From Myxococcales bacterium (GTDB taxonomy: Bacteria; Desulfobacterota; Binatia; HRBIN30): a stretch of DNA of 64,000 nucleotides. Where the stretch lies: positions 1 to 64,000 of the forward strand of contig JBBILD010000015.1 in the NCBI GenBank assembly GCA_037445065.1, read 5' to 3'. The notes beneath the pieces were generated by a model, which was not told the DNA's origin, did no database searches, and saw nothing but the letters and a program-made list of their open reading frames with translations. This document shows, piece after piece, positions 1,367 to 39,025 of the stretch; position 1 is the first letter of the stretch, and each line of letters starts with the position of its first letter. A program made the position numbers and the translations under genes.

Positions 1367-2530
1367 CTACAGTCCGACGGAGGAAAAGGCGGCAGGCAAC
1401 GCGCCGATCAGTTCGCGTGGCGTGGTTGCCTCCACCAACAAGGTACAAAAAGGCGCGTACGCACCAATCACGCTGTCTCCCGTGTTCCACCTTTGCTGCG
1501 GCTCGGGGTTGATCCACACCACTGCGTGGCACTGCCCTGCAATCCGCGCAAATGTTTCGCGTTCGGGCGGGCGCCAGTTGTTGCGAGCATCGCCGAGTAT
1601 AAACAGCACTGTGTTGGCGGAAAACCGGAAGGGGTGGCCGGACAAGCTGCGTAGGAGCTTGCCGTAGTCGGAGCGTGCCCCCAAATCGAGTTTTCCGCTT
1701 GGGTACACGGTGCCGTTCGTGAAGTCGATCTCCACCGGAGTATCTACAAACCCGTAGAACTCGGAACGGCGAAACAGCGGGCGCAGGGCGTAAACGAAGG
1801 TGAGAAAAAAATGGCTTGCTGTTGCCACTGAGTGCGAAAGGTCGCAAAGCACGACAAGATCGGCGTGCCTCGGCCTGCGCTTCTGCCAAGCGATCCGGCA
1901 CATGATACCGCCTTGCGCTAGCGACCAGCGGAAGGTCCGGCGGTAGTCCACTCGTCCGCGGTGCGCTGCTGCATACCGGCACCGTAGCCGGCGGGCAAAC
2001 GCACGCGCGAGCCATTCGAGTTCCGACTGCAGCTCGCGCACGTCCTGGACGTCAATGGTCGGGAACGGCCGGTCCAGTACGGTGCGGATCGAGTGCTGCT
2101 TCAGGCCGGGTGATTGTCCTTGTGGGGCTTCTCCCTCGTTGCTCGGGCCCGACTCCTCGGCTTCCCGGCACTGATCGCTCCCACGTAGGTGGTGGATGGA
2201 GGGCAAAGCGCGGTCTTCAGCTTTGCTGCGGCCGAGCAAACTGTTGCCCGGTTGGGGCCCACCTCTGCCACTGGAGTCGCGGGGCGAATCGTGGCGCCGG
2301 CGTTTCCTAAGCTCCTTGGGAGCGGCCGGAAAATAAAGTTCGAACAAGCGCTCGAAAACCGGCAAATCGCCTTTCCGTTTGACAAGTGAAGTGGCCAGCG
2401 CGGCGCGCAAGACGTGCCGTTCGATGCCAAGCAGCGAAATGGCACGAGCTGCGTCGAGCGTTTCTGCTGGACTCGCTTGGATGCCGTGTGCCCGCAGCTC
2501 CTGGAAAAATCGGAACAACCGGCGCTTCAT
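1367..2530 (-). CDS. VWA domain protein, CoxE-like
   Basis: N-term LRAHGI..S..ETLDA; MIDAS-like CDLSHSV; ILGDARNNW; WINPEP..RWNTGDS. Confidence 0.9.
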   Translation of the reverse strand: MKRRLFRFFQELRAHGIQASPAETLDAARAISLLGIERHVLRAALATSLVKRKGDLPVFERLFELYFPAAPKELRKRRRHDSPRDSSGRGGPQPGNSLLGRSKAEDRALPSIHHLRGSDQCREAEESGPSNEGEAPQGQSPGLKQHSIRTVLDRPFPTIDVQDVRELQSELEWLARAFARRLRCRYAAAHRGRVDYRRTFRWSLAQGGIMCRIAWQKRRPRHADLVVLCDLSHSVATASHFFLTFVYALRPLFRRSEFYGFVDTPVEIDFTNGTVYPSGKLDLGARSDYGKLLRSLSGHPFRFSANTVLFILGDARNNWRPPERETFARIAGQCHAVVWINPEPQQRWNTGDSVIGAYAPFCTLLVEATTPRELIGALPAAFSSVGL

Positions 2531-2533
2531 GTT

Positions 2534-3421
2534 TCAGGAGCGTGCAACCTTGTGGCTCTGTGAGAGCAATGAGGGGAACTTCCCGCTCACCGTGTCGAGG
2601 TCCTCATCGTTCTTGAGCAAAACGCCGAGGGTTTGGCGCGTGCGCGGATCCTGGAGCTCGCGGATCCCAAGAGCGAGAAGCGACCGTGCCCAGTCAATCG
2701 CTTCGGCCACGCTTGGGTGCTTGCGCAACTGCAACTTGCGCAGGGTGTGGACGAAACGCGCGACATGCTCGCGCAAGGCCTCGTCCAAATCAGGCACTCG
2801 TACGCGCAGGATGTTGCGTTCGAGTTCAACGGTGGGGAAGTCCAGGTAGAGGTAAAAGCACCGCCGCCGTAACGCTTCGGAAAGCTCGCGCGCGCGATTC
2901 GAGGTGAGGACCACGAGTGGACGCTGGTGCGCCCTGATCACACCGTACTCGGGGATGCTGACCTGAAACTCTCCGAGAAACTCGAGCAAAAACGCCTCGA
3001 ATTCTTCATCGGCCTTGTCCACCTCGTCAATGAGGAGCACCGTACGCCGGGATGCGGTCAGCGCGCGCAGCAGAGGCCGCTCGAGCAGGTAAGCGGGAGA
3101 GAAAATTTGCTCCTCCACTTCCTCCCAGGCCGCGCCACGCAAACGGTCGCTTTGCAGTCGCAGGATCTGTTTGTGGTAGTTCCACTCATAGAGTGCGTGC
3201 GTGGAATCGAGACCCTCGTAACACTGCAGGCGAATGAGTTCGTAGCCCAGTGCCTGACTCAAGGAAACAGCGAGCTGGGTTTTTCCCGCACCCGCCGGAC
3301 CCTCGACCAATAGAGGTTTGTTCAACCGCAGGGCAAGAAAAGTCGAAACTTCGAGCTGGGGCGCGCACAAGTAGCCGACAGACTCGAGCTTGTCGCGCAA
3401 CTGTTCGGGGCGCTCGATCAT
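2534..3421 (-). CDS. MoxR family AAA+ ATPase (CoxD-like)
   Basis: Walker A EGPAGAGKT, RLQCYEGLD, ALYEWNY, Walker B LLIDEVDKAD, ELSEALRRRC. Confidence 0.95.
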   Translation of the reverse strand: MIERPEQLRDKLESVGYLCAPQLEVSTFLALRLNKPLLVEGPAGAGKTQLAVSLSQALGYELIRLQCYEGLDSTHALYEWNYHKQILRLQSDRLRGAAWEEVEEQIFSPAYLLERPLLRALTASRRTVLLIDEVDKADEEFEAFLLEFLGEFQVSIPEYGVIRAHQRPLVVLTSNRARELSEALRRRCFYLYLDFPTVELERNILRVRVPDLDEALREHVARFVHTLRKLQLRKHPSVAEAIDWARSLLALGIRELQDPRTRQTLGVLLKNDEDLDTVSGKFPSLLSQSHKVARS

Positions 3422-3453: not shown

Positions 3454-4443
3454 TTAGGCGTGGGCGACGAGCGCAGGAGGCCCCTCAACGCCATCGGCCT
3501 TGTTCGGCCGCCCCTTTTCTAAGATCCGGCGCAAGTGCTGCACGCTGATCGACTTCACGATGCCGGCCTTGACCAACGCTGCGCGCAGCGTCCGCAAGGA
3601 CCATTGCTCCCGCTCCAAACCGAACTGGCGAGGCGAGGTTTCGGCGACTTGCAAGATCGCTTTCCGTACTTCCGTCGTAAACACGCTGGGGCCGTGTCCT
3701 CGCCGCTGCGTTTGTAAGCCCAGCACCCCATGCTGGCGAAACCGCCGTACCCAGCGGCGCACAGCGAGGCGGCCAACGCCGAATCCGGCCGCGACCTCCG
3801 CTTCGGAGAGCCCACTGGCGCGAGCAAGAACGATCCGCGCCCGCTTGGCGGCCTCAGGCTTGCCCTCTTGCGCGAGCTGTTCCAAGCCGGCCCGCGCCTG
3901 CGGTGTGAGCGTCAAGCTCGCTGCCTGGCTGCGTTGCCAGAGCTCTGGCGGCAGCGGCACACCCTGGAGCAGTTGCCGTAGCCCCTCGACACTGATTTGC
4001 CCGACGATTCCGCGGCGCAGCACGTGCGCTTGCAGCCGGCGCAAAGACCAGTGCTCGAATGCCTCTCCCACGTCGCGCGGTGAGTGCACCGCGATCCGTA
4101 CGATCGCATCACGCACTGCTGCATCGAGGCGCCGCTTGCGGGCCTTTCCCGCAGAGGCGTGCGCCAGCCCTGCCAGGCGCCGTCGCTCGAAGCGCCGCAC
4201 CCAGCGACGCACGGTTGCGCGGTCGGCCCCGAGCTGTCGCGCAATTTGCGAAAACGGCCGTCCTTCTGCACGCAGAAGGATCATGCGCGCTCGACGCGAG
4301 TGCGACCCGCTACCTTCAGCCGCAATCCACTCCAGTTCGGCCCGTTCCTCGGCAGTCAAAGCGAAGCGGCTCCCGCGATTGGCCTTCGCCCGGCCTTGCG
4401 CTGGTTCTGCTTCCCGTACCAAACGGTTCCCTGGCTTGGTCAT
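3454..4443 (-). CDS. Protein with two tandem IS630-type HTH DNA-binding modules, no DDE domain
   Basis: Two ~130 aa repeats LT...R..L...RAR..L..A.G......A...G.....VRRWVRRF...GL...SPR..G....WSLR.L...G...IS...LR..L; start at 4443 or up to 4506. Confidence 0.8.
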   Translation of the reverse strand: MTKPGNRLVREAEPAQGRAKANRGSRFALTAEERAELEWIAAEGSGSHSRRARMILLRAEGRPFSQIARQLGADRATVRRWVRRFERRRLAGLAHASAGKARKRRLDAAVRDAIVRIAVHSPRDVGEAFEHWSLRRLQAHVLRRGIVGQISVEGLRQLLQGVPLPPELWQRSQAASLTLTPQARAGLEQLAQEGKPEAAKRARIVLARASGLSEAEVAAGFGVGRLAVRRWVRRFRQHGVLGLQTQRRGHGPSVFTTEVRKAILQVAETSPRQFGLEREQWSLRTLRAALVKAGIVKSISVQHLRRILEKGRPNKADGVEGPPALVAHA

Positions 4444-5071
4444 GGCCGCCGCATACGCTCTAAGTGCCGAGAGCATATACACTTTTTTGGCCACCAGCGC
4501 AAGCAAAACAAAGTTTTTCTCTTACGCCTCGTCCCAGAAGAACAGCGCGAACGAAATCGAGTCCCCCTTGGCTAAGGACACCTCGGGTGCCGCGATCACT
4601 CGGGGGGGCTGGGGCGGTTTTTCCGGCATGCTGGCTCTTTTACGAGGTTTCGTATCGCTCCGTACGATTGTCTGCATGGTCCCTTGTCTCCTCTACGCCT
4701 AACGGATGCAAGGCTGCTGCCAGCGCAGGCTGGCTTGTGAGATCCGACGGGAATTTACCGCCGGGGCGGGCAAAGGGTCGCCAAGAATACGTTTTTTCGG
4801 AATGATGTACGGATTTTTGGACATTCGCTCGAACCCCGGGAGTGACAGAGTCACGCGCCTGGCGGTCCGCGGCGTGCGAGGCGGAGCGCGACTGGCCTTC
4901 AGCAGGAACTGCTGGCGAGGAAAGGCACGAGCTTGGTGACACCATTGGGAGGGTTGGTGTTTGCAACCTCTTTCTGGTCGCGCAACGCCGTCACTTTCCT
5001 GCTCACCCGCTCTTACAGCGACAACCCGGAGCTGAAGGGACAAAGCCGTCGAGGCAGAGACTGTTTTGGAC

Positions 5072-6713: not shown

Positions 6714-7733
6714 ATGGCGTACATACCTGCCGAGGAACTCACTTACCAACGCCTTCGCAATTTGGACTTCCAACGCACGCTCTGTCTCCAGTCGGTAAGC
6801 GCCCTCGAAGTCCATGGCCCGCACTTGCCGTTAGGAATGGACCTGTTCATGGCCCGTTGGATGGCAGAAGAAAGTGGGCGGCGCTTTGCGGAACGGCATC
6901 CCGACTGGACAGTCGTGCAAATGCCGCACTTGCCCGTGGGCACCGACGAGCTTCCCGCAGCAGGTTCTATGAACGTGCGGCCTCGCGCGTTGTACCGGTT
7001 GCTGTGGGACCATGCCCGCTCGCTCGTCCGTGCCGGTTACCGCTTCATCGTGCTGACCAACGGCCACGGTGGGCCGCGGCATGCAGCGGCCATTGAGTAC
7101 GTGTGCCAGAAGGCGAGCAAGCGATACGGCGTACAAATGTTTTCGCCCGCAATTGCGGCTTTGCACCGCATCATTACGGGACAGCGATTCGATCGTGTCG
7201 AGGAAATCTTGGGCCGGCCGCTGAGCGAGACGGAGAAGGCCGGACTCGTCGGCGGCGAACACGCTGGCGGCTGGGAAACGTCCTTTGCACTGGCCGCCCT
7301 GCCGGCGGTGGTGGAGACCCAGTGGAAGGAACTCGGTTTGTTGCGGCCGCCCCGGCTCCGCCCCTTGCAAAGGCTCGCCGAGTCTTTGAGCGCCGCGTTG
7401 GAGAAGCGGGGCAGAGACGCAGCCAAGACCCGCGAACTGCTGGGTTCATTGGCCAGCAGCCTCGGCTGGTTGTGTAACGCGAGATACGGATATGGTGGCC
7501 CGCTGGTGACGTACAGCGGCAACCCGTCGGTGGCATCGGCTGAGCTGGGGCGCGCGTTCCGCGAGGTGATGGTGGAGGAGTGCTTGGCCGAGATCGAGGC
7601 GGTGACCAGCGGGAAGAAAGACGCGCTTGCCGTGCGCAGTATTGCTTCGGACCATGCGCTCATTCAGCCAAGCTTTGCTCCGCGCGTGCTCGCGGTTACC
7701 GCGGTGGTGATCGCGCTCCTGTGGTGGTGGTGA
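6714..7733 (+). CDS. Creatininase family amidohydrolase with C-terminal hydrophobic helix
   Basis: Motifs EVHGPHLPLGMD, NGHGG, EHAGGWETS; GGAGAG RBS. Confidence 0.9.
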   Translation: MAYIPAEELTYQRLRNLDFQRTLCLQSVSALEVHGPHLPLGMDLFMARWMAEESGRRFAERHPDWTVVQMPHLPVGTDELPAAGSMNVRPRALYRLLWDHARSLVRAGYRFIVLTNGHGGPRHAAAIEYVCQKASKRYGVQMFSPAIAALHRIITGQRFDRVEEILGRPLSETEKAGLVGGEHAGGWETSFALAALPAVVETQWKELGLLRPPRLRPLQRLAESLSAALEKRGRDAAKTRELLGSLASSLGWLCNARYGYGGPLVTYSGNPSVASAELGRAFREVMVEECLAEIEAVTSGKKDALAVRSIASDHALIQPSFAPRVLAVTAVVIALLWWW

Positions 7734-12947: not shown

Positions 12948-13277
12948 ATGGTGCTGGCAAAGGGCACGCTCCGGAAGGCCCAGATTCGCGACTTGCTCGA
13001 AGAACTCAAGGCAGTGGCAGAGCGCTGCGGTTATTGGGTGCGCGAAGAAAAGCTGCTGCGCGATGTCGGCTACCGAGTGCGCAGCGGCGGCTGTCGCCTG
13101 CGCGAGCGCCGGCTCATTTTGCTTGACCGTGAAGCGCCGGTTCAGGCGCAGCTCGATGCGCTGGTGGAAATCCTCGCCGCAGAGTCGGTGCCAGAGGGCG
13201 AACTAAGCCCGCAAGCCGCTCGGCTGCTCGCCCAGGCCCGGCGACCGCCGCTACGCGCCGCGGGTGCAAGATCATGA
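12948..13277 (+). CDS. Hypothetical protein
   Basis: LLEELKAVAERCGYWVREEKL...RSGGCRL...ILLD; ATGA overlap with the Fur-family gene. Confidence 0.75.
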   Translation: MVLAKGTLRKAQIRDLLEELKAVAERCGYWVREEKLLRDVGYRVRSGGCRLRERRLILLDREAPVQAQLDALVEILAAESVPEGELSPQAARLLAQARRPPLRAAGARS

Positions 13278-13876
13278 AGCGCAAGCCCGCCGCCTCGCTG
13301 CCGGCTGCGGCTCCCGAGTCGGTCGCCGAACGCTTCCGGGTCTTCCGCGAACACCTGCACCGGCTCGGACTCAAATGGACCGCGCAGCGCGACGACATCG
13401 CGCAGGTGTTTTTTGCGAGCAAGCGCCACATCAGCGTCGAGGAGCTGTACCACGCCGTCAAGCGCGTCAACCCGCGCATTGGGTACGCCACCGTTTACCG
13501 AACCATGAAGTTGCTCACCGAGTGCGGCCTGGCCATCGAGAGCCACTTCCTCAACGGGGAGGCTCGCTACGAGAGCACCGAAGGCCACCACCACGACCAC
13601 CTGATCTGCACCGAGTGTGGCACGATCGTGGAATTCGAAGAAGAGCGCATCGAAGCGCTGCAGCGCGAGGTGGCGAAGCGTGCCGGCTTTTTGTTTACTG
13701 GTCACCGCATGGAGCTCTATGGGGTATGCGCCGCGTGCCAAAAGACCGCCCCCACTGAGCGCAGGCGAGGCGAGGAGAAAGGACTCCGCGAAGATGAACG
13801 AGCTCACTCCTCAGCAGGTACAAGCGCTCATCCAGCAGGGCGAGCGGCTCGTGCTGCTGGACGTGCGCGAGCCTGA
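13274..13876 (+). CDS. fur: Fur family transcriptional regulator
   Basis: GLKWTAQR, H.SVEELY, IGYATVYRT, HHHDHLICTECG, C-terminal CAAC; subfamily (Fur/Zur/PerR/Nur) unresolved. Confidence 0.9.
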   Translation: MKRKPAASLPAAAPESVAERFRVFREHLHRLGLKWTAQRDDIAQVFFASKRHISVEELYHAVKRVNPRIGYATVYRTMKLLTECGLAIESHFLNGEARYESTEGHHHDHLICTECGTIVEFEEERIEALQREVAKRAGFLFTGHRMELYGVCAACQKTAPTERRRGEEKGLREDERAHSSAGTSAHPAGRAARAAGRARA

Positions 13877-14111
13877 GGAGGTGGCGGTCGTCCGCCTCCC
13901 CGGCTCGCTCCATATCCCCATGGGCGAGGTGTTCTCGCGCCTGCACGAACTCGACCGCGGCGCGCACATCGTGGTGTACTGCCACCACGGGATCCGCAGC
14001 GCGGCAATTGCCGCGCTCTTGCAGGAGCACGGGTTCGAGCATGTGTCGAACCTGGCTGGCGGCATTGACGCGTGGTCCCAAGCTGTTGATCCGAGCTTGC
14101 CACGCTACTGA
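13794..14111 (+). CDS. Single-domain rhodanese
   Basis: LLDVREPEE, active loop YCHHGIRS, NLAGGIDAWS..VDPSLPRY. Confidence 0.92.
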   Translation: MNELTPQQVQALIQQGERLVLLDVREPEEVAVVRLPGSLHIPMGEVFSRLHELDRGAHIVVYCHHGIRSAAIAALLQEHGFEHVSNLAGGIDAWSQAVDPSLPRY

Positions 14112-15213: not shown

Positions 15214-16602
15214 TCAACTCGGCGGCGCCGCTGGTGGCCGATACCCAGGAGGAGGGAGCTGAGCCGCCACGGTTGCGAGCGCCCGATCCAGGATGGAGAC
15301 GATTTGCTCGAGGTCCTTCCGACCCGCCACCAGCGGGGGGCATAAAGCCAGCACGTCCCCACTGGCGCGCACGATGAGGCCGCGCTGGAGGCATGCCTCG
15401 CGTACCCGTATGCCCACCTGCCAGCCTGTAGGGAAAGGCTTTTTGGTGACGCGCTCTGCCACCAGTTCGATTGCCGCCATGAGCCCGATCGAACGCACGT
15501 CGCCAACGATCTCGTGCTGGAACAAGTTGCGGAGCTGCTCCGCAAAAAACCCTTCGAGTCGGCGCGCCCGGCTCAGCAAGCGTCTCCTGCGCATGAGGCT
15601 CAGGTTCGCGAGCGCCGCAGCGCACACCGCTGGGTGTCCAGAGTAAGTGAAACCGTGATGGAGCGAGAACTCCGGACCGGCATCCACAAAAGTCCGGTGG
15701 ATTTCTTCCTTCATCAGCACTCCGCCGAGCGGCAAGTAGCCGCTAGTGATGCCCTTGGCAAAGGAAATCATGTCGGGAATCACTTTCCAGCGCTGGATGC
15801 CGAACGGATAGCCGAGCCGCCCGAAGCCAGTGATGACTTCATCATAGACCAGGAGGATGCCGTAGCGATCGCAAATCTCGCGAATGCGGGCGTGGTAGTC
15901 GGCAGGGGGCACGATGACACCGCCCACGCCTTGCACCGGCTCGGCGAGAAACGCACCGATCCGGTCGGCTCCCTCCCGCTTGAGCAGTGCTTCCAGTTCA
16001 TCAGCGCAAGCCAGGCGGCATTGTGGGTAGTGCAAGGAGAGGTCGCAGCGGTAACAGTGCGGCCGGGCGATGCGCAGCACGCCGTCGAGGAGCGGCTCGT
16101 AGTGTTGGTGGAAGTAAGGAAGGCCGGTGAGACTTGCTGCTCCAGTCGAAGACCCATGATACGCGCGGTTGAGCGTAACGATACGGTATTTCTCTGGCTT
16201 CCCCTTGAGGCGCCAGTAGAGGCGCACCAAACGAATCACCGACTCGTTGGCCTCCGATCCGCCAGAGGTGAACATCACCCGGGTGAGCCCGCGCGGCGCG
16301 AGTTGCACGATGCGGCGCGCGAGTTCCTCTGCCGGGCGGGAAGAGAACCCGAGCAGCGTAGGGGCGTAGGCCAGGTTGCGCATTTGCCGGTGCACAGCCC
16401 GCGCAATGCGGGCTTCGCCGTGCCCGATGGCCACGTTCCACAGCGACGACATCCCATCGATGTAGCGCCGCCCGTTGCGGTCCCAGACGTAAATCCCGCG
16501 CCCGCGAACCAGTTGTAAAGTGCCGCGCTCAGCGGTGAGCGCGGGCGACGTGAAGCCGTGTACTAAGTGGCGTGCGGCGCCGGGGGTCGCAGAATTTTTC
16601 AT
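15214..16602 (-). CDS. Class III PLP aminotransferase (omega-amino acid/polyamine type)
   Basis: YIDGMSSLWNV..GHG, SGGSEANE, YHGS, EPVQG.GG, DEVITGFGR, AKGITSGYLPLG, HGFTYSGHP. Confidence 0.93.
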   Translation of the reverse strand: MKNSATPGAARHLVHGFTSPALTAERGTLQLVRGRGIYVWDRNGRRYIDGMSSLWNVAIGHGEARIARAVHRQMRNLAYAPTLLGFSSRPAEELARRIVQLAPRGLTRVMFTSGGSEANESVIRLVRLYWRLKGKPEKYRIVTLNRAYHGSSTGAASLTGLPYFHQHYEPLLDGVLRIARPHCYRCDLSLHYPQCRLACADELEALLKREGADRIGAFLAEPVQGVGGVIVPPADYHARIREICDRYGILLVYDEVITGFGRLGYPFGIQRWKVIPDMISFAKGITSGYLPLGGVLMKEEIHRTFVDAGPEFSLHHGFTYSGHPAVCAAALANLSLMRRRRLLSRARRLEGFFAEQLRNLFQHEIVGDVRSIGLMAAIELVAERVTKKPFPTGWQVGIRVREACLQRGLIVRASGDVLALCPPLVAGRKDLEQIVSILDRALATVAAQLPPPGYRPPAAPPS

Positions 16603-16836
16603 TGCCTGACTCCTGTTGCTGCCTTGTGGATTTCGGTTCCTGCGCGTGCCGGTCGAGACCGCAGGCCCGTGTCTCTCTTCGCCGGCTCCTCCCCGCGCAT
16701 CCGCACCCCCAGGCTGGCTTTACGGGAGCTGCGCTGAACTGCGGCACGCGCCCCTTATACCCATTTCCCCGGAAAGATACGAGGGCTGCCGGGCGCTGGA
16801 CGCGATTTTTTTGCGTAGCTCGGGGGACTGCGGTTC

Positions 16837-16866
16837 TTGCCAACACATAGGCACCGATCGTAAAAG
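16837..16866 (+). promoter_or_regulatory. Putative sigma70-type promoter for the leader ORF/TonB receptor
   Basis: TTGCCA-N18-TAAAAG ending 13 nt before ATG 16880. Confidence 0.35.
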
Positions 16867-16879
16867 GGCTTCCACGTTC

Positions 16880-17356
16880 ATGCGGCGCAGGCGCACACAG
16901 CGACGAGTCGGTCTCGCGGTCCTTCTCGCCATGCTGGCGACCTGGGCCGTTTACCCGAATTCGAGGCTGCTGGTGCACCGCCATCCGGGGGGGACGCACG
17001 CACACCTGCACCTCGATCTTGCCAACCCTCGAGCCGCACACGGGGATGCGGAGGGCCAAGCGCTACCGTTTGCCAGCAACGGCGAAGAAGTCGAGCAGTT
17101 CACGGCCCCGGGGCAGCGCACCACTGCGGCCTCGGGACCGGCCTGGAGAACTCCTCTCTCGGACTCGCTCGACACGCACGCACACGTGTTCCACGCGGCC
17201 GTCCTCGAAGCCGCGAATGCGGTGGGGTGGCAGGGCCTGTGGCTGGGTCATCGTAACCCCTTGCTGTGGACCGCCGAACAGGCTGGCTGCGAGCCAGACT
17301 CGGCAATTGCCAATCCGCGCGCTCCGCCACCGCTCGCTCCTGCTGAGTCCATCTAG
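16880..17356 (+). CDS. His-rich leader protein with N-terminal signal/TM and C-terminal RAPP motif (DUF2946/CruR-like architecture)
   Basis: MRRRRTQRR + hydrophobic helix; HRHPGGTHAHLH and HAHVFH; ends NPRAPPPLAPAESI; directly upstream of the TonB receptor. Confidence 0.75.
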   Translation: MRRRRTQRRVGLAVLLAMLATWAVYPNSRLLVHRHPGGTHAHLHLDLANPRAAHGDAEGQALPFASNGEEVEQFTAPGQRTTAASGPAWRTPLSDSLDTHAHVFHAAVLEAANAVGWQGLWLGHRNPLLWTAEQAGCEPDSAIANPRAPPPLAPAESI

Positions 17357-17458
17357 ACGGACAACGCGGTTGGCGGCCGAGCACCGACACCGACGCCACC
17401 GCGTGAGAGAGTGCTGGGAGTGAACCCAGGTGGGGTAAGTGTGCACGCCTGGGGAGAT

Positions 17459-19894
17459 ATGCAGAGGAAAAGCCGGATGCGGATCTGGAGAGAGTATGTA
17501 TGGACCAGTATTGCGCTGCTGCTGGGAGCGGCGGCTTTTGCGAGCACAGCGCAGGAACCGATTGCTGAAACAGAGGCGGTCGGCACGGACTCGGTGCCGG
17601 TGCGCCAGGAGTCGCGTCAGCGGCGCTCAGCGCCACGGCGCCTAGAGTTGGGGGAGGTTCTGGTCGAAGCGCGCAAGCCGCTGAGTTCGGCCTCGTCGGA
17701 GGAAATCCGAGCACGGGATTTCACCATGCGCCCGCACGGGACGTTACAAGAGATCCTAAACAACGTGCCCGGGCTTGTCGTGGCTCAGCACCAGGGTGGT
17801 GGAAAAGCTCCGCAGTGGCTGGTGCGCGGGTTCGATGGGGACCACGGCAGCGACTTCGCGGTGTTTGTAGATGACATGCCCGTGAACCTCGTCTCCCACG
17901 CCCATGGTCAGGGATACGCGGATGTCAATTTTGTCATCCCAGAGACCATCCAACGCTTGCAGTTGTTCAAGGGACCGTATTTCCCGGAATTCGGAGATTT
18001 CGCCAACGCGGGCGCGCTGAAGATCGTGCTCAAAGACGACTTCCCCGAGCCCTTTGCGCTCGCGGAGGGAGGCTCGTTTTCGACGCAGAGGTACGTTCTC
18101 GGTGCGTCACCGCGGCTGGGGCTCTGGACGTCCCTGCTCGCCGCGCAGGCGTACTTTTCCAATGGCCCGTTCCGCGACCCGCAAAACTACGCCCGGTACA
18201 ATGTCTTGGCCAAGGTGGTGCGGAACTGGGACGGAGGCACACGCCTCAGCCTCGCCGGCGGGGTGTATCAGGGCGATTGGGACGCTTCAGGACAAATCCC
18301 GCTGCGCGCCGTGCAGCGCGGTGCGATCGCCTTGCTGCCTGTAGAATTGGTGCCGCGCCCGCCGCAGCGGCCGTTTGACCGCTGGGACGCGATTGACCCG
18401 AGCGAAGGTGGGCGCACGGACCGCGAGTGGCTGCAGCTCCGTTGGGAAGCCATCCCTTCGCCAGAGCAACAGTGGTACGCGACTGCCTGGGCGCAACGCT
18501 ACAAGCTGGCGTTGTTCTCGAACTTCACCTTTTTCAAAGAAACCGGCTTGCGCTTCGTCGCGCGTGGACGCGAAGTAGCGGACGTTGCCGGGGCGGCCTT
18601 CGACCCACTTGCGGCCTACCTGCCAGGCGACGGAATCGAACAGAATGACAGCCGTGTGCTGTACGGTGGGAAACTGCAGTATACGCGGTACGGATTCTTG
18701 CCGACGTCCGCTTTGGCTGCAGTCGAGGATGTGCCAGTGCGGACACGGGTGGCCGTGGAGACCAGGCACGACCACATCCGCTTACAGTTGCATCGGCAAG
18801 TGCGCCGCCATCGTTTCTTCCCGGTCAACGCCGTAGCGGTGGAGGAGCGCTCGCTGTCTGGGTTTGCAGACCAGCAGTGGTTCGTTGGCAAATGGGCCCG
18901 TCTCGAGGCCGGCCTGCGCGGAGACGTGTTCTTTTTCGACGTGCGCGACCGCTTGCCAGCGGGTGTGGGGATTCTTGACCCTCTTACCCAAGCTTGCATC
19001 GGGCAGACCGACCCGAACTTTTGTGCCGTGCCGATCCGCGGCAACACTGTGGACTCGATCGTGAGCCCCAAAGCCAACCTGATCTTGAGCCCCTTCGACT
19101 CTACGGAGGTGTACCTCAACTTCGGCACCGGTTTTCATTCGAACGACGCTCGGAACGCGATTCTGGCGGAAAACTTCCCGCAACTCGCTGGCAACCTGCA
19201 GTCGCCGCTGACCCGCTCCCTGGGCTACGAAATCGGTGCTCGCACTCGCCAGTTCGAAACGCTCGACTTGGGTGCGGCCCTGTGGTTGCTGGATTTGGAT
19301 AGCGAACTCGTGTTCGTCGGCGACGCTGGCAACCAGCAGACCGGGGCAGGTGGTAGCTTCGAGCCTTCCGCTGCTACGAGGCGCTGGGGTGTAGACTTCG
19401 AAGCACGCTGGGCAGCGCGCGACTGGCTGTTCCTGGATTACGACCTCAGCTACGCCGATCCGCGCTTTCGTGCCAGTGGCGAGGCCATTCCGCTCGCCCC
19501 CACCTTGCTGATGAACGGTGGCGTGACCGTGGAGCCGCTAGCAGGCTTCGCTGCTGCCTTGCGCGTGCGCTACTTGGGCGATCGCCCCGCAATTGAGGAC
19601 CGCAGCCTCACCGCACGCGGGTACACGCTTCTCGACTTCCTCGCCCGCTACCGGTGGCGTAACGTCGAGGCGTCCGTCGCCTTCCTCAACTTGCTCGACC
19701 GCGATTGGCGCGAGGCCCAATTTGCGGACACCTCCTGCCTCATTGGCGAACTCCAAGACCCCGACCGCAACCCAGGCACTCCGTGCTCGACTCGCCCCGG
19801 GCTTCAGGGTACACGCGACGACCCGCCCCCAGACATCCACTTCACGCCTGGCAATCCGTTCAATGTGCGCGGTGGAATCACCGTGTACTTTTGA
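17459..19894 (+). CDS. TonB-dependent outer membrane receptor, probably for a metal
   Basis: Signal peptide; plug VPGLVVAQHQGGGKA.Q..VRGFDGDHG, SHAHGQGYAD.NF, KGPY; C-terminal FTPG.PF..RGGITVYF. Confidence 0.95.
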   Translation: MQRKSRMRIWREYVWTSIALLLGAAAFASTAQEPIAETEAVGTDSVPVRQESRQRRSAPRRLELGEVLVEARKPLSSASSEEIRARDFTMRPHGTLQEILNNVPGLVVAQHQGGGKAPQWLVRGFDGDHGSDFAVFVDDMPVNLVSHAHGQGYADVNFVIPETIQRLQLFKGPYFPEFGDFANAGALKIVLKDDFPEPFALAEGGSFSTQRYVLGASPRLGLWTSLLAAQAYFSNGPFRDPQNYARYNVLAKVVRNWDGGTRLSLAGGVYQGDWDASGQIPLRAVQRGAIALLPVELVPRPPQRPFDRWDAIDPSEGGRTDREWLQLRWEAIPSPEQQWYATAWAQRYKLALFSNFTFFKETGLRFVARGREVADVAGAAFDPLAAYLPGDGIEQNDSRVLYGGKLQYTRYGFLPTSALAAVEDVPVRTRVAVETRHDHIRLQLHRQVRRHRFFPVNAVAVEERSLSGFADQQWFVGKWARLEAGLRGDVFFFDVRDRLPAGVGILDPLTQACIGQTDPNFCAVPIRGNTVDSIVSPKANLILSPFDSTEVYLNFGTGFHSNDARNAILAENFPQLAGNLQSPLTRSLGYEIGARTRQFETLDLGAALWLLDLDSELVFVGDAGNQQTGAGGSFEPSAATRRWGVDFEARWAARDWLFLDYDLSYADPRFRASGEAIPLAPTLLMNGGVTVEPLAGFAAALRVRYLGDRPAIEDRSLTARGYTLLDFLARYRWRNVEASVAFLNLLDRDWREAQFADTSCLIGELQDPDRNPGTPCSTRPGLQGTRDDPPPDIHFTPGNPFNVRGGITVYF

Positions 19895-20360
19895 AGTGCC
19901 TGGTTTGCCTCTCCTGAGACGCAGCCGAGCATCGCACCGTGAAAGTGCGGAGCAGCGAGCGATGCGCGGCTAAGGGCACGTGGGACCGAGTACATCGTGC
20001 GAGCGACCCTAGTGATCGCCGCGGGACGAGTCCCATCCGTGAATTGCAAACCACGAACGATATGCCGGGCCCGGCGCGTGGCTGCCGTCGCCCGCGCCGC
20101 AAAGCGGCAACCCGCTGGCTCTCTCGCTCGCGCACCATCACCGTGCTGCCGGACGTGCGTGCGATTCCCGCCCCGGAAAGCGCCGAACGCCTTGCGCCCG
20201 AGAGTCTGCTGTTGCTGCGCAGCGCCTACTGCGGAACTACCTTCTTTGGACACCCACGCTGTGGTCGTCACCGTCGGTGCGAGGATACCCGGCTTGCCGT
20301 GGCTGGTCCGGTTTCATGGGACATTTGCTGCCAGGGGCCGCAACACCGCGCCCCAGTGAG

Positions 20361-20388
20361 CGTAGGGGCGGCCTTTGTGGCCGCCTCT
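20361..20388. repeat. REP-like palindrome (GTAG type)
   Basis: CGTAGGGGCGGCC-TTTGT-GGCCGCCTCT; degenerate relative at ~5436-5458. Confidence 0.65.
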
Positions 20389-20758
20389 GGTTTTGCTGTT
20401 ACGTCGTTTCGATCGAGCATGCGGTGATACTGGCGCTGCCGTAGCTAGGGGATTGTGGTCCCGCCACCACGCTCTCGCGTCACATCCATGTTGTGGAGGT
20501 CCCGTGGGCACCTCGTGTTTGGCGCCTGCGGGGAGCATGCGGGCCGCGCGCCGACGTTCCTGGCTGAAACGCCTACCATAGCAACCCTGGGTTGCTCCGA
20601 TCGTGTGTGTGGAAACCGCGTTGGTGGAGGAGGACGGGCGGCCGGCGGTGCAGTCTTGAGAACTCCAGCGGAAACTGAAGGTACAGCTCGCTTTCTCGAC
20701 CAGTACTTTCCTTGTGCATTGCTAGCCAGCCCTGCCCTCTGTTAGCGCTTCTTCGACC

Positions 20759-28979: not shown

Positions 28980-29990
28980 TTACTGCTCCACCAGCGCTCG
29001 GATCTCGCGTACCACGTCATCGCGCACCCCTTTGGCTGCTACCTTGACCGCATTGGCAATGGCGCCTGCACTGGAGCGGCCGTGCGCTTTGATGGCGAGA
29101 TGTTCAAAGCCAAGGATCGGCGCGCCACCGTACTTGGTGTAATCGGTGAGTTCGCGCAGGCGCGCGATCCCACTCTCCATTACCCGAAGGCCGAGTTTAT
29201 ACCGCCAGCTCTCGCGCGCGGCTCCGCCAGCCATTTCGGCAAGCAACTCCGCGAGACCCTCGAGCAACTTGAGTACGATGTTCCCGACGAAGCCTTCGCA
29301 CACGATTACGTCGGCCTTGCCTTTGACCAGCTCGTGTCCCTCCACGTTGCCTGTGAAGTTGATGCCAGGCAAGTGCTGCAAGCGGAGGAATGCTTCCACC
29401 AGCGTGTCGCCCCCTTTGTTTTCTTCGCTGCCCATGTTCAGCAGCGCCACTCGGGGGCTCGGCACTTTGGAAATGCGCTTGGCGTACGCACTGCCCATCA
29501 GCGCAAATTGCACGAGTTCGGTTGCACCGCAGCGCACGGTGGCCCCGACGTCGAGTAAGAGGGCGAAGCGGTCTTGCCCCGGGTACTCTGTCTGCCGCGG
29601 GTATACCGAGGCCAGGGCCGCACGGCGGATTCCAGGCAAGGTGCGAAAGAAGCGCGCACAGGCGAGCACCGCCGCTCCCGTGTTTCCAGCAGTGACCAAC
29701 GCATCCGCCTCGCCTTTGGCTACCAACTCCGCGGCCACACACACAGACGCCCTCGATTTGTTGCGGATGGCGGCGTGCGGCTCCTCCGCCATGCCGATCG
29801 CCTCCGGCGCATGGTGGATTTGCAGCGTCTCTGGCCGGTACTCCTGGCGTTCGAGCAGCGGCTGGATTTGCTTTTGATCCCCTACAAGCACGAGTTCGAT
29901 CTCGGTCTCGCGGGAAATTTGCGCCGCGGCCTTTACCGCCTCGAACGGCGCAAAGTCGCCTCCCATGGCATCCAGCGCGATCGTCGGCAT
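28980..29990 (-). CDS. plsX: Phosphate acyltransferase PlsX
   Basis: IALDAMGGDFAP, VTAGNTGA, LLNMGSEENKG, VCEGFVGNIVLK..EG, YGGAPILG, KAHG.S; GGAGG RBS. Confidence 0.93.
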   Translation of the reverse strand: MPTIALDAMGGDFAPFEAVKAAAQISRETEIELVLVGDQKQIQPLLERQEYRPETLQIHHAPEAIGMAEEPHAAIRNKSRASVCVAAELVAKGEADALVTAGNTGAAVLACARFFRTLPGIRRAALASVYPRQTEYPGQDRFALLLDVGATVRCGATELVQFALMGSAYAKRISKVPSPRVALLNMGSEENKGGDTLVEAFLRLQHLPGINFTGNVEGHELVKGKADVIVCEGFVGNIVLKLLEGLAELLAEMAGGAARESWRYKLGLRVMESGIARLRELTDYTKYGGAPILGFEHLAIKAHGRSSAGAIANAVKVAAKGVRDDVVREIRALVEQ

Positions 29991-37749: not shown

Positions 37750-38745
37750 ATGGACTGCAAGTGGATCTGGGTCGTGATCGGCCTGCTTTTCGTGGGCCCG
37801 GTGTGCGTGCAGGCCGCGGCAGCACAGCGCCCCGCGGTTGCGCTTGGGGTAGAGAAGGTCTCTTTGGTCGGCAGCCGCCGTGCGTCAGGACAAACTACGC
37901 GGATCGCCAACCGCTCGCCGTCTTCTGCAGAGGCCAGTGCGGGCAAGGCCGGGGAGGCGCGCTTTAGCGAGCCGCCGGTCCCATTGCAGGCAGCCATCTC
38001 GAAGCGGCTCGGGCAGGAGCGAAGCGGCTACGCCGCCCAGCAGCAACGCACCGTGGCAGGGCTTCTCCCGCGGGTGCGCTTTGCCAATGTGGCACACGGG
38101 CTGAGAGCGGCGCACGACGGGCAGAGGTTGCTGGTGGAAGCGGGAGAGAGCTGTGCGTGGGGGCTTTCCAGGCCGCGGCTGGGTTGCCGTGCGGTTGGGG
38201 CGGAAGAGACGCGTTGGCAGAGAGTCGGGAGAGCTACAACGCAGCGGCTCGAGGTGAACCAGGTCGAGTGGGAGCGGTGTGCCGGCAGGGCGCGGGTCCG
38301 GGAAGCGGGTGCGGAACGGCCCCGCGGAATTGCAGCAAAGGTTTACGCTGGAGGGGGCGCCCGAGGGCTGCAGAGCGGGGGCGGAAGAAGTGGTGGTGGA
38401 GCTGGCTGTTCCTGGGACAGGTAAGAGCCTGGCGGTGGGGGTGGAAGCGAGTAAGCGCGCTGTGGTGGTGAAGAGAAGGGGCGAGGAGCGGGTCGTGCTG
38501 CGCTTCGGGGGGCTGTTTGCGTACAAAGGAAAAGGGAGGGAACTCCGAGCGTGGATGGAGGCCCGGGAGGGAAGCCGCCTGCGGCTAACCGTGGAGATGG
38601 CAGGGGCGGAGTATCCGGTGCTGATCCCCTTTTGCAGCAGGCCAAGCTAACTGCCTCGGACGGCGCAGCAGGTGGCTGGTTCCGTACCTCCGCTGCCATT
38701 TCCGGGGACACGGTGGTGGTAGGGGTGCTGGGGCACGACATTTCC
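37750..38745 (+). pseudogene. Decayed secreted FG-GAP-repeat (beta-propeller) protein
   Basis: Signal peptide at 37750; pieces in three frames: LQAAIS..LGQ / NGPAELQQRFTL..RELRAWME..AEYPV / DPLLQQAKLTASDGAAG.WF..S.AISGDTVVVG, then similarity lost. Confidence 0.7.
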
Positions 38746-39025
38746 GTGGACAGCCACTTCGTGTGGCTCCAGGTCCCCCGCGCGCACTCTCGGGGTCTCG
38801 TGGGCGGGTACGGGCGGCTGCGCGCCCATGACAACGGATTGGTGCACGGCGGTGCGACGGCTTGTATGGCCGAGCGCGACTCGCCAGTCGGCCTTTGCGA
38901 CCCCCGTGGGGGGAATCCACCTTACGGACCAACGAACCTCCCAGGCCCGGGTTCCCTGCCGGCCGGGTGGGAAGAGAAGCAGCGCTAGCCCCTGCTTCTA
39001 GGCGAAGAAGGGGCGGCCGCGAGAC

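Follow-up and report, generated by a model that had tools for sequence, protein, structure and literature searches.

R-A-P-P and R-G-P-P are proven ribosome arrest motifs that are depleted from proteomes, R-S-P-P being partly permissive (PMC12992588). The same 2025 survey reports that small open reading frames (ORFs) with a RAPP/RGPP motif and a localisation signal are enriched upstream of TonB-dependent receptors (5450 with RAPP vs. 722 with AAPP, approximately 30-fold; PMC12992588). This report describes an ORF of 158 amino acids (aa), hereafter the leader, which precedes a TonB-dependent receptor gene on the forward strand of a 64,000-nucleotide (nt) stretch of DNA from a Myxococcales bacterium of the Binatia lineage (NCBI GenBank assembly GCA_037445065.1, contig JBBILD010000015.1, positions 1 to 64,000; the whole stretch is referred to as the window). 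RAPP/RGPP leaders in front of TonB receptors are already known as a class; what is new here, as judged from sequence comparison, is a putative counterpart of the copper-responsive leader CruR that has histidine ligands and, unlike CruR itself, lies outside the DUF2946 family.

To our knowledge, CruR and CutF are the only metal-sensing leader peptides that have been worked out; both are cysteine-based and both sense copper. CruR (Bp2923) of Bordetella pertussis, a DUF2946 (PF11162) protein, heads the cruR-bfrG operon, has a signal peptide and carries a CxxC motif 45 residues before a C-terminal RAPP, a spacing whose alteration impairs regulation (Roy et al., 2022, PMC9426467). Expression of the receptor encoded next depends on RAPP and its copper repression on CxxC, and cruR acts via Rho-dependent termination in a region with more C than G (PMC9426467). 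Arrest at the RAPP of CruR has been shown in vitro by toeprinting, the P and A sites of the ribosome being occupied by the two Pro codons (EMBO J 2025, PMC12992588). CutF of Rhodobacter capsulatus, also a DUF2946 protein, combines a CxxxC motif with a PPP stall site and responds to periplasmic copper; the metal induces stalling, and the stall melts a stem-loop over the ribosome-binding site (RBS) of the next gene, which encodes a detoxifying oxidase (10.1101/2025.02.05.636593). With regard to metal uptake, the TonB nickel transporters FrpB4 and FecA3 of Helicobacter pylori are known to be repressed by NikR (reviewed in PMC3856676).

The leader is probably a cis-acting regulatory arrest peptide that works like CruR and uses histidines as metal ligands, a reading that we hold with moderate confidence. 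Its product begins with a basic N-terminus (MRRRRTQRR) followed by a 16-residue hydrophobic stretch (residues 10–25) and includes ten histidines (residues 33, 35, 40, 42, 44, 54, 100, 102, 105, and 124), with clusters HRHPGGTHAHLH at residues 33–44 and HAHVFH at residues 100–105, as well as a single cysteine (C137) whose equivalent is Ser in the relative P0003 (related proteins and genomic loci are numbered with the prefixes P and L, respectively). The basic N-terminus, the hydrophobic segment, the ten histidines and the single cysteine had been pointed out in an earlier sequence-only reading of this DNA, together with the R-A-P-P at 17318–17329, eight codons before the stop, and the position of the ORF about 100 nt upstream of the receptor; all of them are confirmed, the gap being 102 nt. 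The features of the locus, all on the + strand, are listed below (pLDDT, predicted local distance difference test).

16880..17356, +, leader ORF (upstream ORF), 158 aa plus stop, from ATG 16880 to TAG 17354–17356; has homologues and is found upstream of related receptors.
16880..16954, +, basic n-region and hydrophobic segment (residues 1–25); same layout in every homologue, AlphaFold2 helix at residues 2–24 with pLDDT >90.
16976..17011, +, His motif 1, H-x-H-x-G-G-x-H-x-H-x-H (residues 33–44); H33, H35, H42, and H44 invariant in 15 sequences.
17063..17080, +, L-P-F-A-S-N block (residues 62–67); invariant in the seven nearer sequences, gone in the wider alignment.
17177..17185, +, His motif 2, H-A-H (residues 100–102); invariant in 15 sequences.
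17186..17317, +, spacer whose length is fixed (44 residues here) but whose sequence is free, as judged from the alignment and spacing counts.
17318..17329, +, R-A-P-P (CGC GCT CCG CCA), putative arrest site, residues 147–150; R147, P149, and P150 invariant.
17330..17356, +, eight-codon tail and TAG stop; the tail has 1–9 residues in relatives.
17260..17345, +, C-rich, G-poor, rut-like stretch over the putative arrest site, maybe a mere by-product of Pro/Ala/Arg/His codons.
17357..17458, +, intergenic region of 102 nt, G-rich, with no intrinsic terminator.
17459..19894, +, TonB-dependent receptor (Plug and TonB beta-barrel domains), the proposed regulated gene; alternative start at ATG 17477.

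The leader is a real gene. Its GC content by codon position (0.75/0.56/0.73, compared with 0.67/0.48/0.75 in the receptor) follows the high/low/high pattern of the window's real genes, which is absent from a possible 5' extension to TTG 16616 (0.61/0.64/0.65); the start at ATG 16880 is supported because distant homologues likewise begin with a basic M-R-x-x-R. Codon-position GC, the existence of homologues and the conserved position rule out a chance ORF. A word-indexed search of 5.8 billion proteins returned only two close relatives (94 and 85% identity), and a HMMER profile pass over 1.84 billion representatives returned four distant small proteins of 148–161 aa and 29–37% identity (P0004, E = 3e-15; P0005, 5e-8; P0007, 7e-6; P0008, 5e-4), in all of which a basic and hydrophobic N-terminus is immediately followed by HxH-x6-HxH, with LPFAxN, another HxH and a C-terminal RAPP further on. 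A further candidate, P0006 (441 aa, repetitive, five stretches, E = 4e-7), was considered an unrelated acidic repeat protein and left out of every alignment. The leader ORF has no match in Pfam or NCBIfam, and its nearest clusters in the ESM Atlas are unnamed hypothetical proteins, none of them DUF2946. At the genome level, the family hidden Markov model (HMM) matches the ORF directly 5' of the receptor at L001 (E = 3e-12), L002 (3e-10), L011 (3e-5), L010 (1e-3), and L013 (4e-3). A genome search with a four-sequence leader alignment (pattern plus tblastn) gave no confirmed locus; this approach is too insensitive for short, fast-evolving leaders, since these were later found upstream of receptors.

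Conservation within the family is confined to a few positions. In a wider alignment of 15 sequences, which are 17–34% identical to the window protein except for one row at 85%, only nine columns are invariant (H33, H35, H42, H44, H100, H102, R147, P149, and P150), corresponding to H-x-H-x6-H-x-H, a second H-x-H and R-x-P-P; Cys is conserved in no column, and the leader relatives have A, G, or S at position 148. Synonymous codons differ at each invariant position, CAC and CAT both occurring at every position of His motif 1, so that selection acts at the level of the peptide rather than of the RNA. All 23 sequences place the last His either 43 (18 sequences) or 44 (five sequences) residues before the Arg, while the gap between His motifs 1 and 2 varies from 34 to 61 residues. 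The proposal of the sequence-only reading that His clusters stand in place of CxxC gains support from this fixed distance of 43/44, close to the 45 of CruR. Elsewhere the sequence changes rapidly: the receptors of the window and L001 are 71% identical and their leaders just 21%, and extra poly-His inserts occur in the relatives at L008, L009, L013, and L067. In the Myxococcota leaders the upstream part differs (LHAxxH ... HGxGSLxH), the His at exactly 43 is retained, and a profile comparison with the other leaders aligns the C-terminal module only (57 columns, E = 2e-4, probability 44%).

These comparisons indicate that the leader is a conserved gene in a small, fast-evolving family, and that the residues kept are exactly those which a sensor-plus-stall device would need. 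An AlphaFold2 model based on the 15-sequence alignment (mean pLDDT 52) has a confident helix at residues 2–24 and disorder at residues 49–144 (pLDDT <50), and His motif 1 is modeled with moderate confidence as a beta-hairpin (strands 28–34 and 41–47). The predicted product is largely disordered and not a folded protein, and residues 1–25 are signal-like, i.e., a signal peptide or a signal anchor, whether cleaved or not.

Leaders of this type are linked to one receptor clade. The receptor search, with one genome per species, gave 149 confirmed relatives, of which the best 80 were kept and 79 loci returned; these comprise 22 Binatia-like, "delta" and Myxococcota loci, whose receptors are 35–71% identical to that of the window, and 57 proteobacterial loci with receptors 26–33% identical, or 38 and 44% over the best aligned segment in two loci. 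A same-strand upstream ORF ending in R[AG]PP or RSPP, with the signal-HxH layout that the sequence-only reading had expected upstream of orthologous receptors, is present at 16/22 loci of the window's own clade, and a leader-like upstream R[AG]PP ORF at 0/57 of the distant proteobacterial loci. At 15 of the 22 the directly upstream ORF ends in RAPP or RGPP, and at L006 it ends in RSPP. Two terminal-RAPP ORFs at L041 and L061 overlap the receptor start, have neither His nor signal features and were treated as chance. In a FastTree phylogeny of 72 receptors, from which eight rows with internal stops in the raw translation were omitted (L007, L013, L024, L032, L037, L058, L073, and L079), the leader-bearing receptors all fall in one 20-row clade with support 100, and 52 proteobacterial receptors lie on the other side.

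The leader pattern exceeds chance. When ORFs of 100 aa or more are counted, R[AG]PP is terminal in 8/2512 from the 57 control loci, in 3/354 of the other window ORFs and in 17/1059 from the 22 clade loci, 14 of the 17 being leaders; the pattern H-43/44-R[AGS]PP-end occurs in 0/2512 control-locus ORFs, and one loose chance match to the His-RAPP pattern appears (at L069) once ORFs down to 60 aa are admitted. Three stop-to-stop ORFs elsewhere in the window (29363–29692, +; 7040–7663, −; 38346–38921, −) have R[AG]PP within their last 16 residues, lack the His spacing and are probably chance products of GC-rich sequence. Two Myxococcota loci show a different ending: the His-rich upstream ORFs L014:4411–4881 and L023:4236–4697 terminate in Q-G-P-stop and Q-A-P-stop, respectively, in place of R-G/A-P-P, and the conserved His again lies 43 residues before the Q[GA]P-stop. 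They may represent a variant that stalls at termination on Pro-stop, or decayed leaders.

The leader does not belong to DUF2946. In the HMM check that the sequence-only reading had suggested, the Pfam model gave no match to the window ORF at E ≤ 1 and no significant match to 21 relatives (best L067, E = 0.86). The test had power, because the same model recognized four CxxC-46-RAPP ORFs from alphaproteobacterial loci of the receptor set (E = 3.6e-6 to 1e-3), of which two exceed the curated cut-off. An hhalign comparison of the 15-sequence His family with the four DUF2946 ORFs, a small sample, aligned 12 columns around RAPP (probability 0.5%, E = 0.12). Membership was rejected on these grounds (no HMM match, no CxxC, profile–profile likeness limited to the RAPP tail), and since neither the HMM nor the profile comparison gave a match, the leader appears to be a His-ligand analog of CruR and not a family member. 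CxxC-type ORFs within the fetched loci have a ligand-to-RAPP distance of 45–46, and the shared plan (signal, ligand motif, 43–46 residues, R[AG]PP) most plausibly reflects convergence, or else a divergence so deep that kinship can no longer be recognized.

Both leader designs were encountered among the fetched loci. At L013:11555–11869 (−) a CxxC-45-RAPP ORF, to which the DUF2946 HMM gives no match, lies in front of a second receptor-TonB-ExbB operon, within a few kb of the His-type leader, so one genome can employ the two designs for different receptors. DUF2946 ORFs (CxxC-46-RAPP) directly follow a NikR-linked receptor at L019:7075–7458, L020:7099–7491, L024:7619–7849, and L028:7081–7464; those of L019 and L020 head a further TonB receptor gene, which would place adjacent receptors under two kinds of metal control.

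Full-text literature searches returned no paper on a His-type or nickel-linked RAPP leader, and as far as we could see the 2025 survey does not describe the His family as such, the constancy of its spacing, the receptor clade to which it is tied or any connection with nickel (PMC12992588). The sequence-only reading knew of no characterized example of this form; this holds for the His form, and has to be amended in that the class was cataloged in 2025 and one His-family member, not discussed there as far as we could see, is present in the supplementary list (PMC12992588): MBM4256116.1 (GCA_016874775.1), HDHAGGEHAHVH ... HWH-43-RAPP, which has the His-family layout and is located before a TonB receptor.

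As for the metal, the neighborhoods of the clade receptors are uninformative. The window, L001 and L002 share synteny with TldD/PmbA downstream; upstream neighbors are aminotransferase/argC genes in the window and L002 and Usp and cyclase genes in L001. A TonB gene lies 3' of the receptor in L002, L006, L007, L010, and L011, followed by ExbB in L007. The proteobacterial relatives offer more: a NikR gene is present in 16/57 of these loci, divergent and directly upstream in 12, and is supported by Pfam NikR_C in 15 loci and by phmmer only in L020. NicO nickel permeases are encoded in L017, L022, and L026. L017 has genes for [NiFe]-hydrogenase subunits as well, L018 has those for urease alpha, UreF and a UreG-like GTPase, and L079 combines an RcnR/CsoR-family repressor with a CDF exporter. 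No NikR homolog was found in the 22 clade loci or in the window, and the upstream position beside the clade receptors, where NikR sits in 12 of the proteobacterial loci, is held by the leader ORF. Since NikR lies beside 16 of the proteobacterial relatives and was not found in the clade loci, the leader may be read as the clade's substitute for NikR, with nickel as its likeliest ligand. The window receptor belongs to the same pattern-retrieved family as the NikR-linked proteobacterial receptors, to which its clade is sister at 26–33% identity. On this comparative evidence the metal of the leader is most likely nickel. The sequence-only reading had proposed a metal other than copper (Ni, Co, or Zn), and this part stands for nickel only and indirectly, through the NikR, NicO, urease and hydrogenase genes beside related receptors. 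The copper genes PepSY_TM, PCuAC, YcnI, and CopC were not found beside the clade receptors.

Two further kinds of neighbor deserve mention. A DUF4331 gene and an unnamed partner (~400 aa) adjoin the receptor in loci of the NikR type (L050, L069) as well as of the leader type (L010, L011), and are candidates for periplasmic or outer-membrane partners in the same uptake pathway (DUF4331 at L010:787–2769, L011:1234–3729, and L069:7022–8572; also in L050, L053, L063, and L058). Genes for HisG and a HisZ-like histidyl-tRNA-synthetase paralog (ATP phosphoribosyltransferase, histidine synthesis) adjoin NikR and the receptor at L019:1699–3836 and L028:2073–4195 (−); these may be mere neighbors or may hint at a nickel-histidine complex as substrate.

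The device that we infer, with its stalling, metal binding, polarity of the switch, role of Rho and compartment of sensing, would operate as follows. A ribosome translating the leader would pause at R-A-P-P; by analogy with CruR, its P and A sites would then contain Pro149 and Pro150, respectively. At the pause the second H-x-H, about 45 residues back, would be just leaving the exit tunnel, and the N-terminal His hairpin would already be outside. With metal absent, the pause would persist and the receptor gene would be transcribed and translated; with metal present, the His ligands would bind it, the nascent chain would compact and the resulting pull would free the pause, so that the leader would be finished and receptor expression would drop. 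The metal bound would most likely be nickel. An arrest peptide can reportedly be released in a zinc-dependent manner when a small zinc-finger domain folds close to the end of the tunnel, which would be a physical precedent for release by metal-induced compaction some 45 residues from the peptidyl-transferase center.

As in cruR, the drop in receptor expression would most likely be brought about by Rho, which would terminate transcription within the C-rich 3' portion of the leader and the intergenic region after it. The leader and the receptor have an operon-like layout, because no terminator-like hairpin or site was found in the gap between them. An excess of C over G from about −200 to +50 nt around the Arg codon, seen in 12–17 of 17 loci and reversed afterwards, fits a rut-like region that a stalled ribosome would shield, and a Rho-dependent route is our preferred inference for the coupling. 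Unmasking of the RBS, as in SecM or CutF, was considered as well and is not supported by a test that is crude: there is no unusually stable fold, no consistent exposure of the RBS and no conserved block. Searches for other regulatory elements were negative, with nothing of note in Rfam over 16400–17700 at E ≤ 1 apart from a minus-strand hit of a CRISPR-repeat model (E = 0.13), no Rfam match in the whole window at gathering score, no inverted-repeat operator in 16590–16890 and no sigma-70-like promoter in 16400–20200.

Several observations weigh against this reading. The leader is dispensable, because 4/22 clade loci (L003, L004, L005, and L058) have none; upstream of the leaderless receptors of L003, L004, and L058 there are PadR, TonB and anti-sigma genes. 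The family is also rare, with two close and four distant homologs in the protein sets. The step that would couple the stall to the receptor finds no direct support in the sequence, because the RBS is not consistently freed: a stalled-ribosome footprint shifts the unpaired probability of the receptor RBS by −0.21 to +0.10 over 18 cases with no trend, the fold of 17290–17490 is no stabler than shuffles (z = −0.26), and the intergenic region has no conserved block among loci. The C-over-G skew may just as well follow from the Pro, Ala, Arg and His codons themselves. Co-translational export might split the His motifs across the membrane at the time of stalling, which would complicate a joint site. 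The assignment of nickel spans 26–33% identity and a deep split of the tree, since the genes on which it is based lie in the other clade; TonB-receptor substrates can change over such distances, and His-rich peptides also bind Zn, Co and Cu(II).

Other explanations account for part of these data. The product could be a working envelope protein, i.e., an exported or anchored His-rich metal binder (chaperone, buffer, or receptor partner) in which RAPP is incidental or tunes translation. The signal-like N-terminus, the many histidines including the poly-His inserts of some relatives, the LPFAxN block kept in nearer relatives with no obvious role in arrest and an operon shared with an uptake receptor would all suit such a protein; we nevertheless find it distinctly unlikely, since the model is largely disordered, conservation is confined to the His motifs and RxPP, RAPP/RGPP is strongly avoided in ordinary proteins (PMC12992588), and the HxH-RxPP distance is fixed at 43/44 while the upstream part varies by tens of residues, whereas a binder needs no set distance between its ligands and its C-terminus. 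The same combination of N-terminal localisation signal and C-terminal RAPP is found in export-monitoring arrest peptides such as SecM, ApdA, and ApdP (PMC12992588), in which case the pull of Sec on the signal would free the pause and the histidines would be irrelevant. That the leader is one of these is highly improbable: the gene that follows encodes a TonB receptor instead of a part of the Sec or YidC machinery, the six invariant His, of which two keep a constant distance to RAPP, would be left with no role, and the signal peptide of CruR is dispensable for regulation (PMC9426467).

The mechanism could also be as proposed and the metal another one, i.e., copper (as for CruR and CutF), zinc or cobalt instead of nickel. 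The characterized metal-sensing leaders all respond to copper, His clusters bind Cu(II), Zn and Co, a copper site of three His plus Met has been predicted for a Streptomyces RAPP leader (PMC12992588), the window has a gene for a FUR-family regulator 3 kb upstream of the leader, and one relative weakly matches the ZIP zinc transporter family via its His-rich loop (E = 0.014). Nonetheless, this remains an unlikely contender in view of the lack of a conserved Cys or Met (the lone Cys137 being Ser in P0003), of the PepSY_TM, PCuAC, YcnI, and CopC genes that are not seen beside clade receptors, of the nickel-related genes beside 16/57 receptor relatives and of L013, in which a CxxC-type and a His-type leader precede different receptors and suggest a division of labor between metals. 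A CruR-like arrest peptide with His ligands, most likely for nickel, thus stays the preferred reading, and the sequence-only proposal is supported as far as sequence analysis reaches.

Other parts of the window were inspected in relation to the locus. The window receptor has relatives of 96–50% identity, several of them named Candidatus Binatia (P0011 is 80% identical); among solved structures there is no close relative, the best being PqqU and YncD (E ~5e-12, over part of the barrel). The 860-nt gap between the receptor and tldD (19895–20758) contains no convincing ORF, no Rfam match and no tRNA, and a remnant of the TonB gene that lies 3' of the receptor in L002 and others was sought there and not found. 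The FUR-family regulator gene (13274–13873, +), followed by a rhodanese-domain gene (13617–14108) 3 kb 5' of the leader, is probably unrelated, because it is not linked to the receptor in L001. The start of the window has mobile-element-like content, namely a transposase-like ORF at 3457–4506 (−; HTH_32, HTH_29, HTH_23) beside AAA and VWA (CoxE-like) genes at 1370–3421.

The 2025 survey found thousands of RAPP/RGPP leaders before TonB receptors and left the ligand and the release mechanism open (PMC12992588). The His family provides a clean test case, with six invariant His, a rigid distance of 43/44, one receptor clade and nickel as a candidate; such a test bears on ligand-induced compaction of nascent chains at the tunnel exit as a general, portable sensing principle, and on whether little-studied phyla can use a translated leader in place of a metalloregulator such as NikR. 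A bolder extension, possible and more doubtful than otherwise, is that the leader is the first nickel-sensing arrest peptide, replacing in Binatia-like bacteria and Myxococcota the repressor NikR of the homologous proteobacterial receptors, and that the modular design has arisen at least twice (Cys-copper and His-nickel), with Q[GA]P-stop as a third solution. If true, a modular plan of signal, ligand motif, 43–46 residues and R[AG]PP would have been built from unrelated sequences, nascent chains at the tunnel exit would serve generally as metal sensors that can be re-programmed, and the Q[GA]P-stop endings at 43 residues in two Myxococcota loci would be cases of stalling at termination.

Compared with known systems, the leader fits the RAPP/RGPP class of 2025 (158 aa, motif eight residues from the end, signal-like segment, co-oriented receptor next), which its authors treated in bulk, CruR and some Streptomyces examples being the only ones reported as tested (PMC12992588). 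The locus resembles FrpB4 and FecA3 in that an outer-membrane TonB receptor would be under metal-responsive negative control, and proteobacterial homologs of the window receptor lie beside nikR; control in H. pylori is transcriptional and exerted by a DNA-binding protein, whereas here a translated leader is proposed and no NikR is nearby. ApdA and ApdP (RAPP) and SecM (RAGP), like the leader as proposed here, join an N-terminal export signal to a C-terminal stall, the first two through the very same RAPP motif, but they precede sec or yidC genes and are freed by the export machinery, while here there is a metal-type receptor and conserved His that would mark a module for ligand sensing. CutF shares with the leader as proposed here an exported product, a metal motif, a C-terminal Pro-rich stall site and post-transcriptional control of the next gene; it differs in that the next gene here encodes an uptake receptor, no consistent RBS-masking structure is present and relief, not induction, of stalling is proposed. 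CruR differs in its ligands (CxxC, vs. HxH-x6-HxH plus HxH here) and in the PepSY_TM gene, which is absent after the receptor here, and the metal here is probably not copper. The two share several traits: both are small ORFs that head a TonB-receptor operon, with an N-terminal signal-like segment, a C-rich, G-poor 3' part, an intergenic region of ~100–160 nt, and a C-terminal RAPP placed 45 residues from the ligand motif in CruR and 43/44 in the His family.

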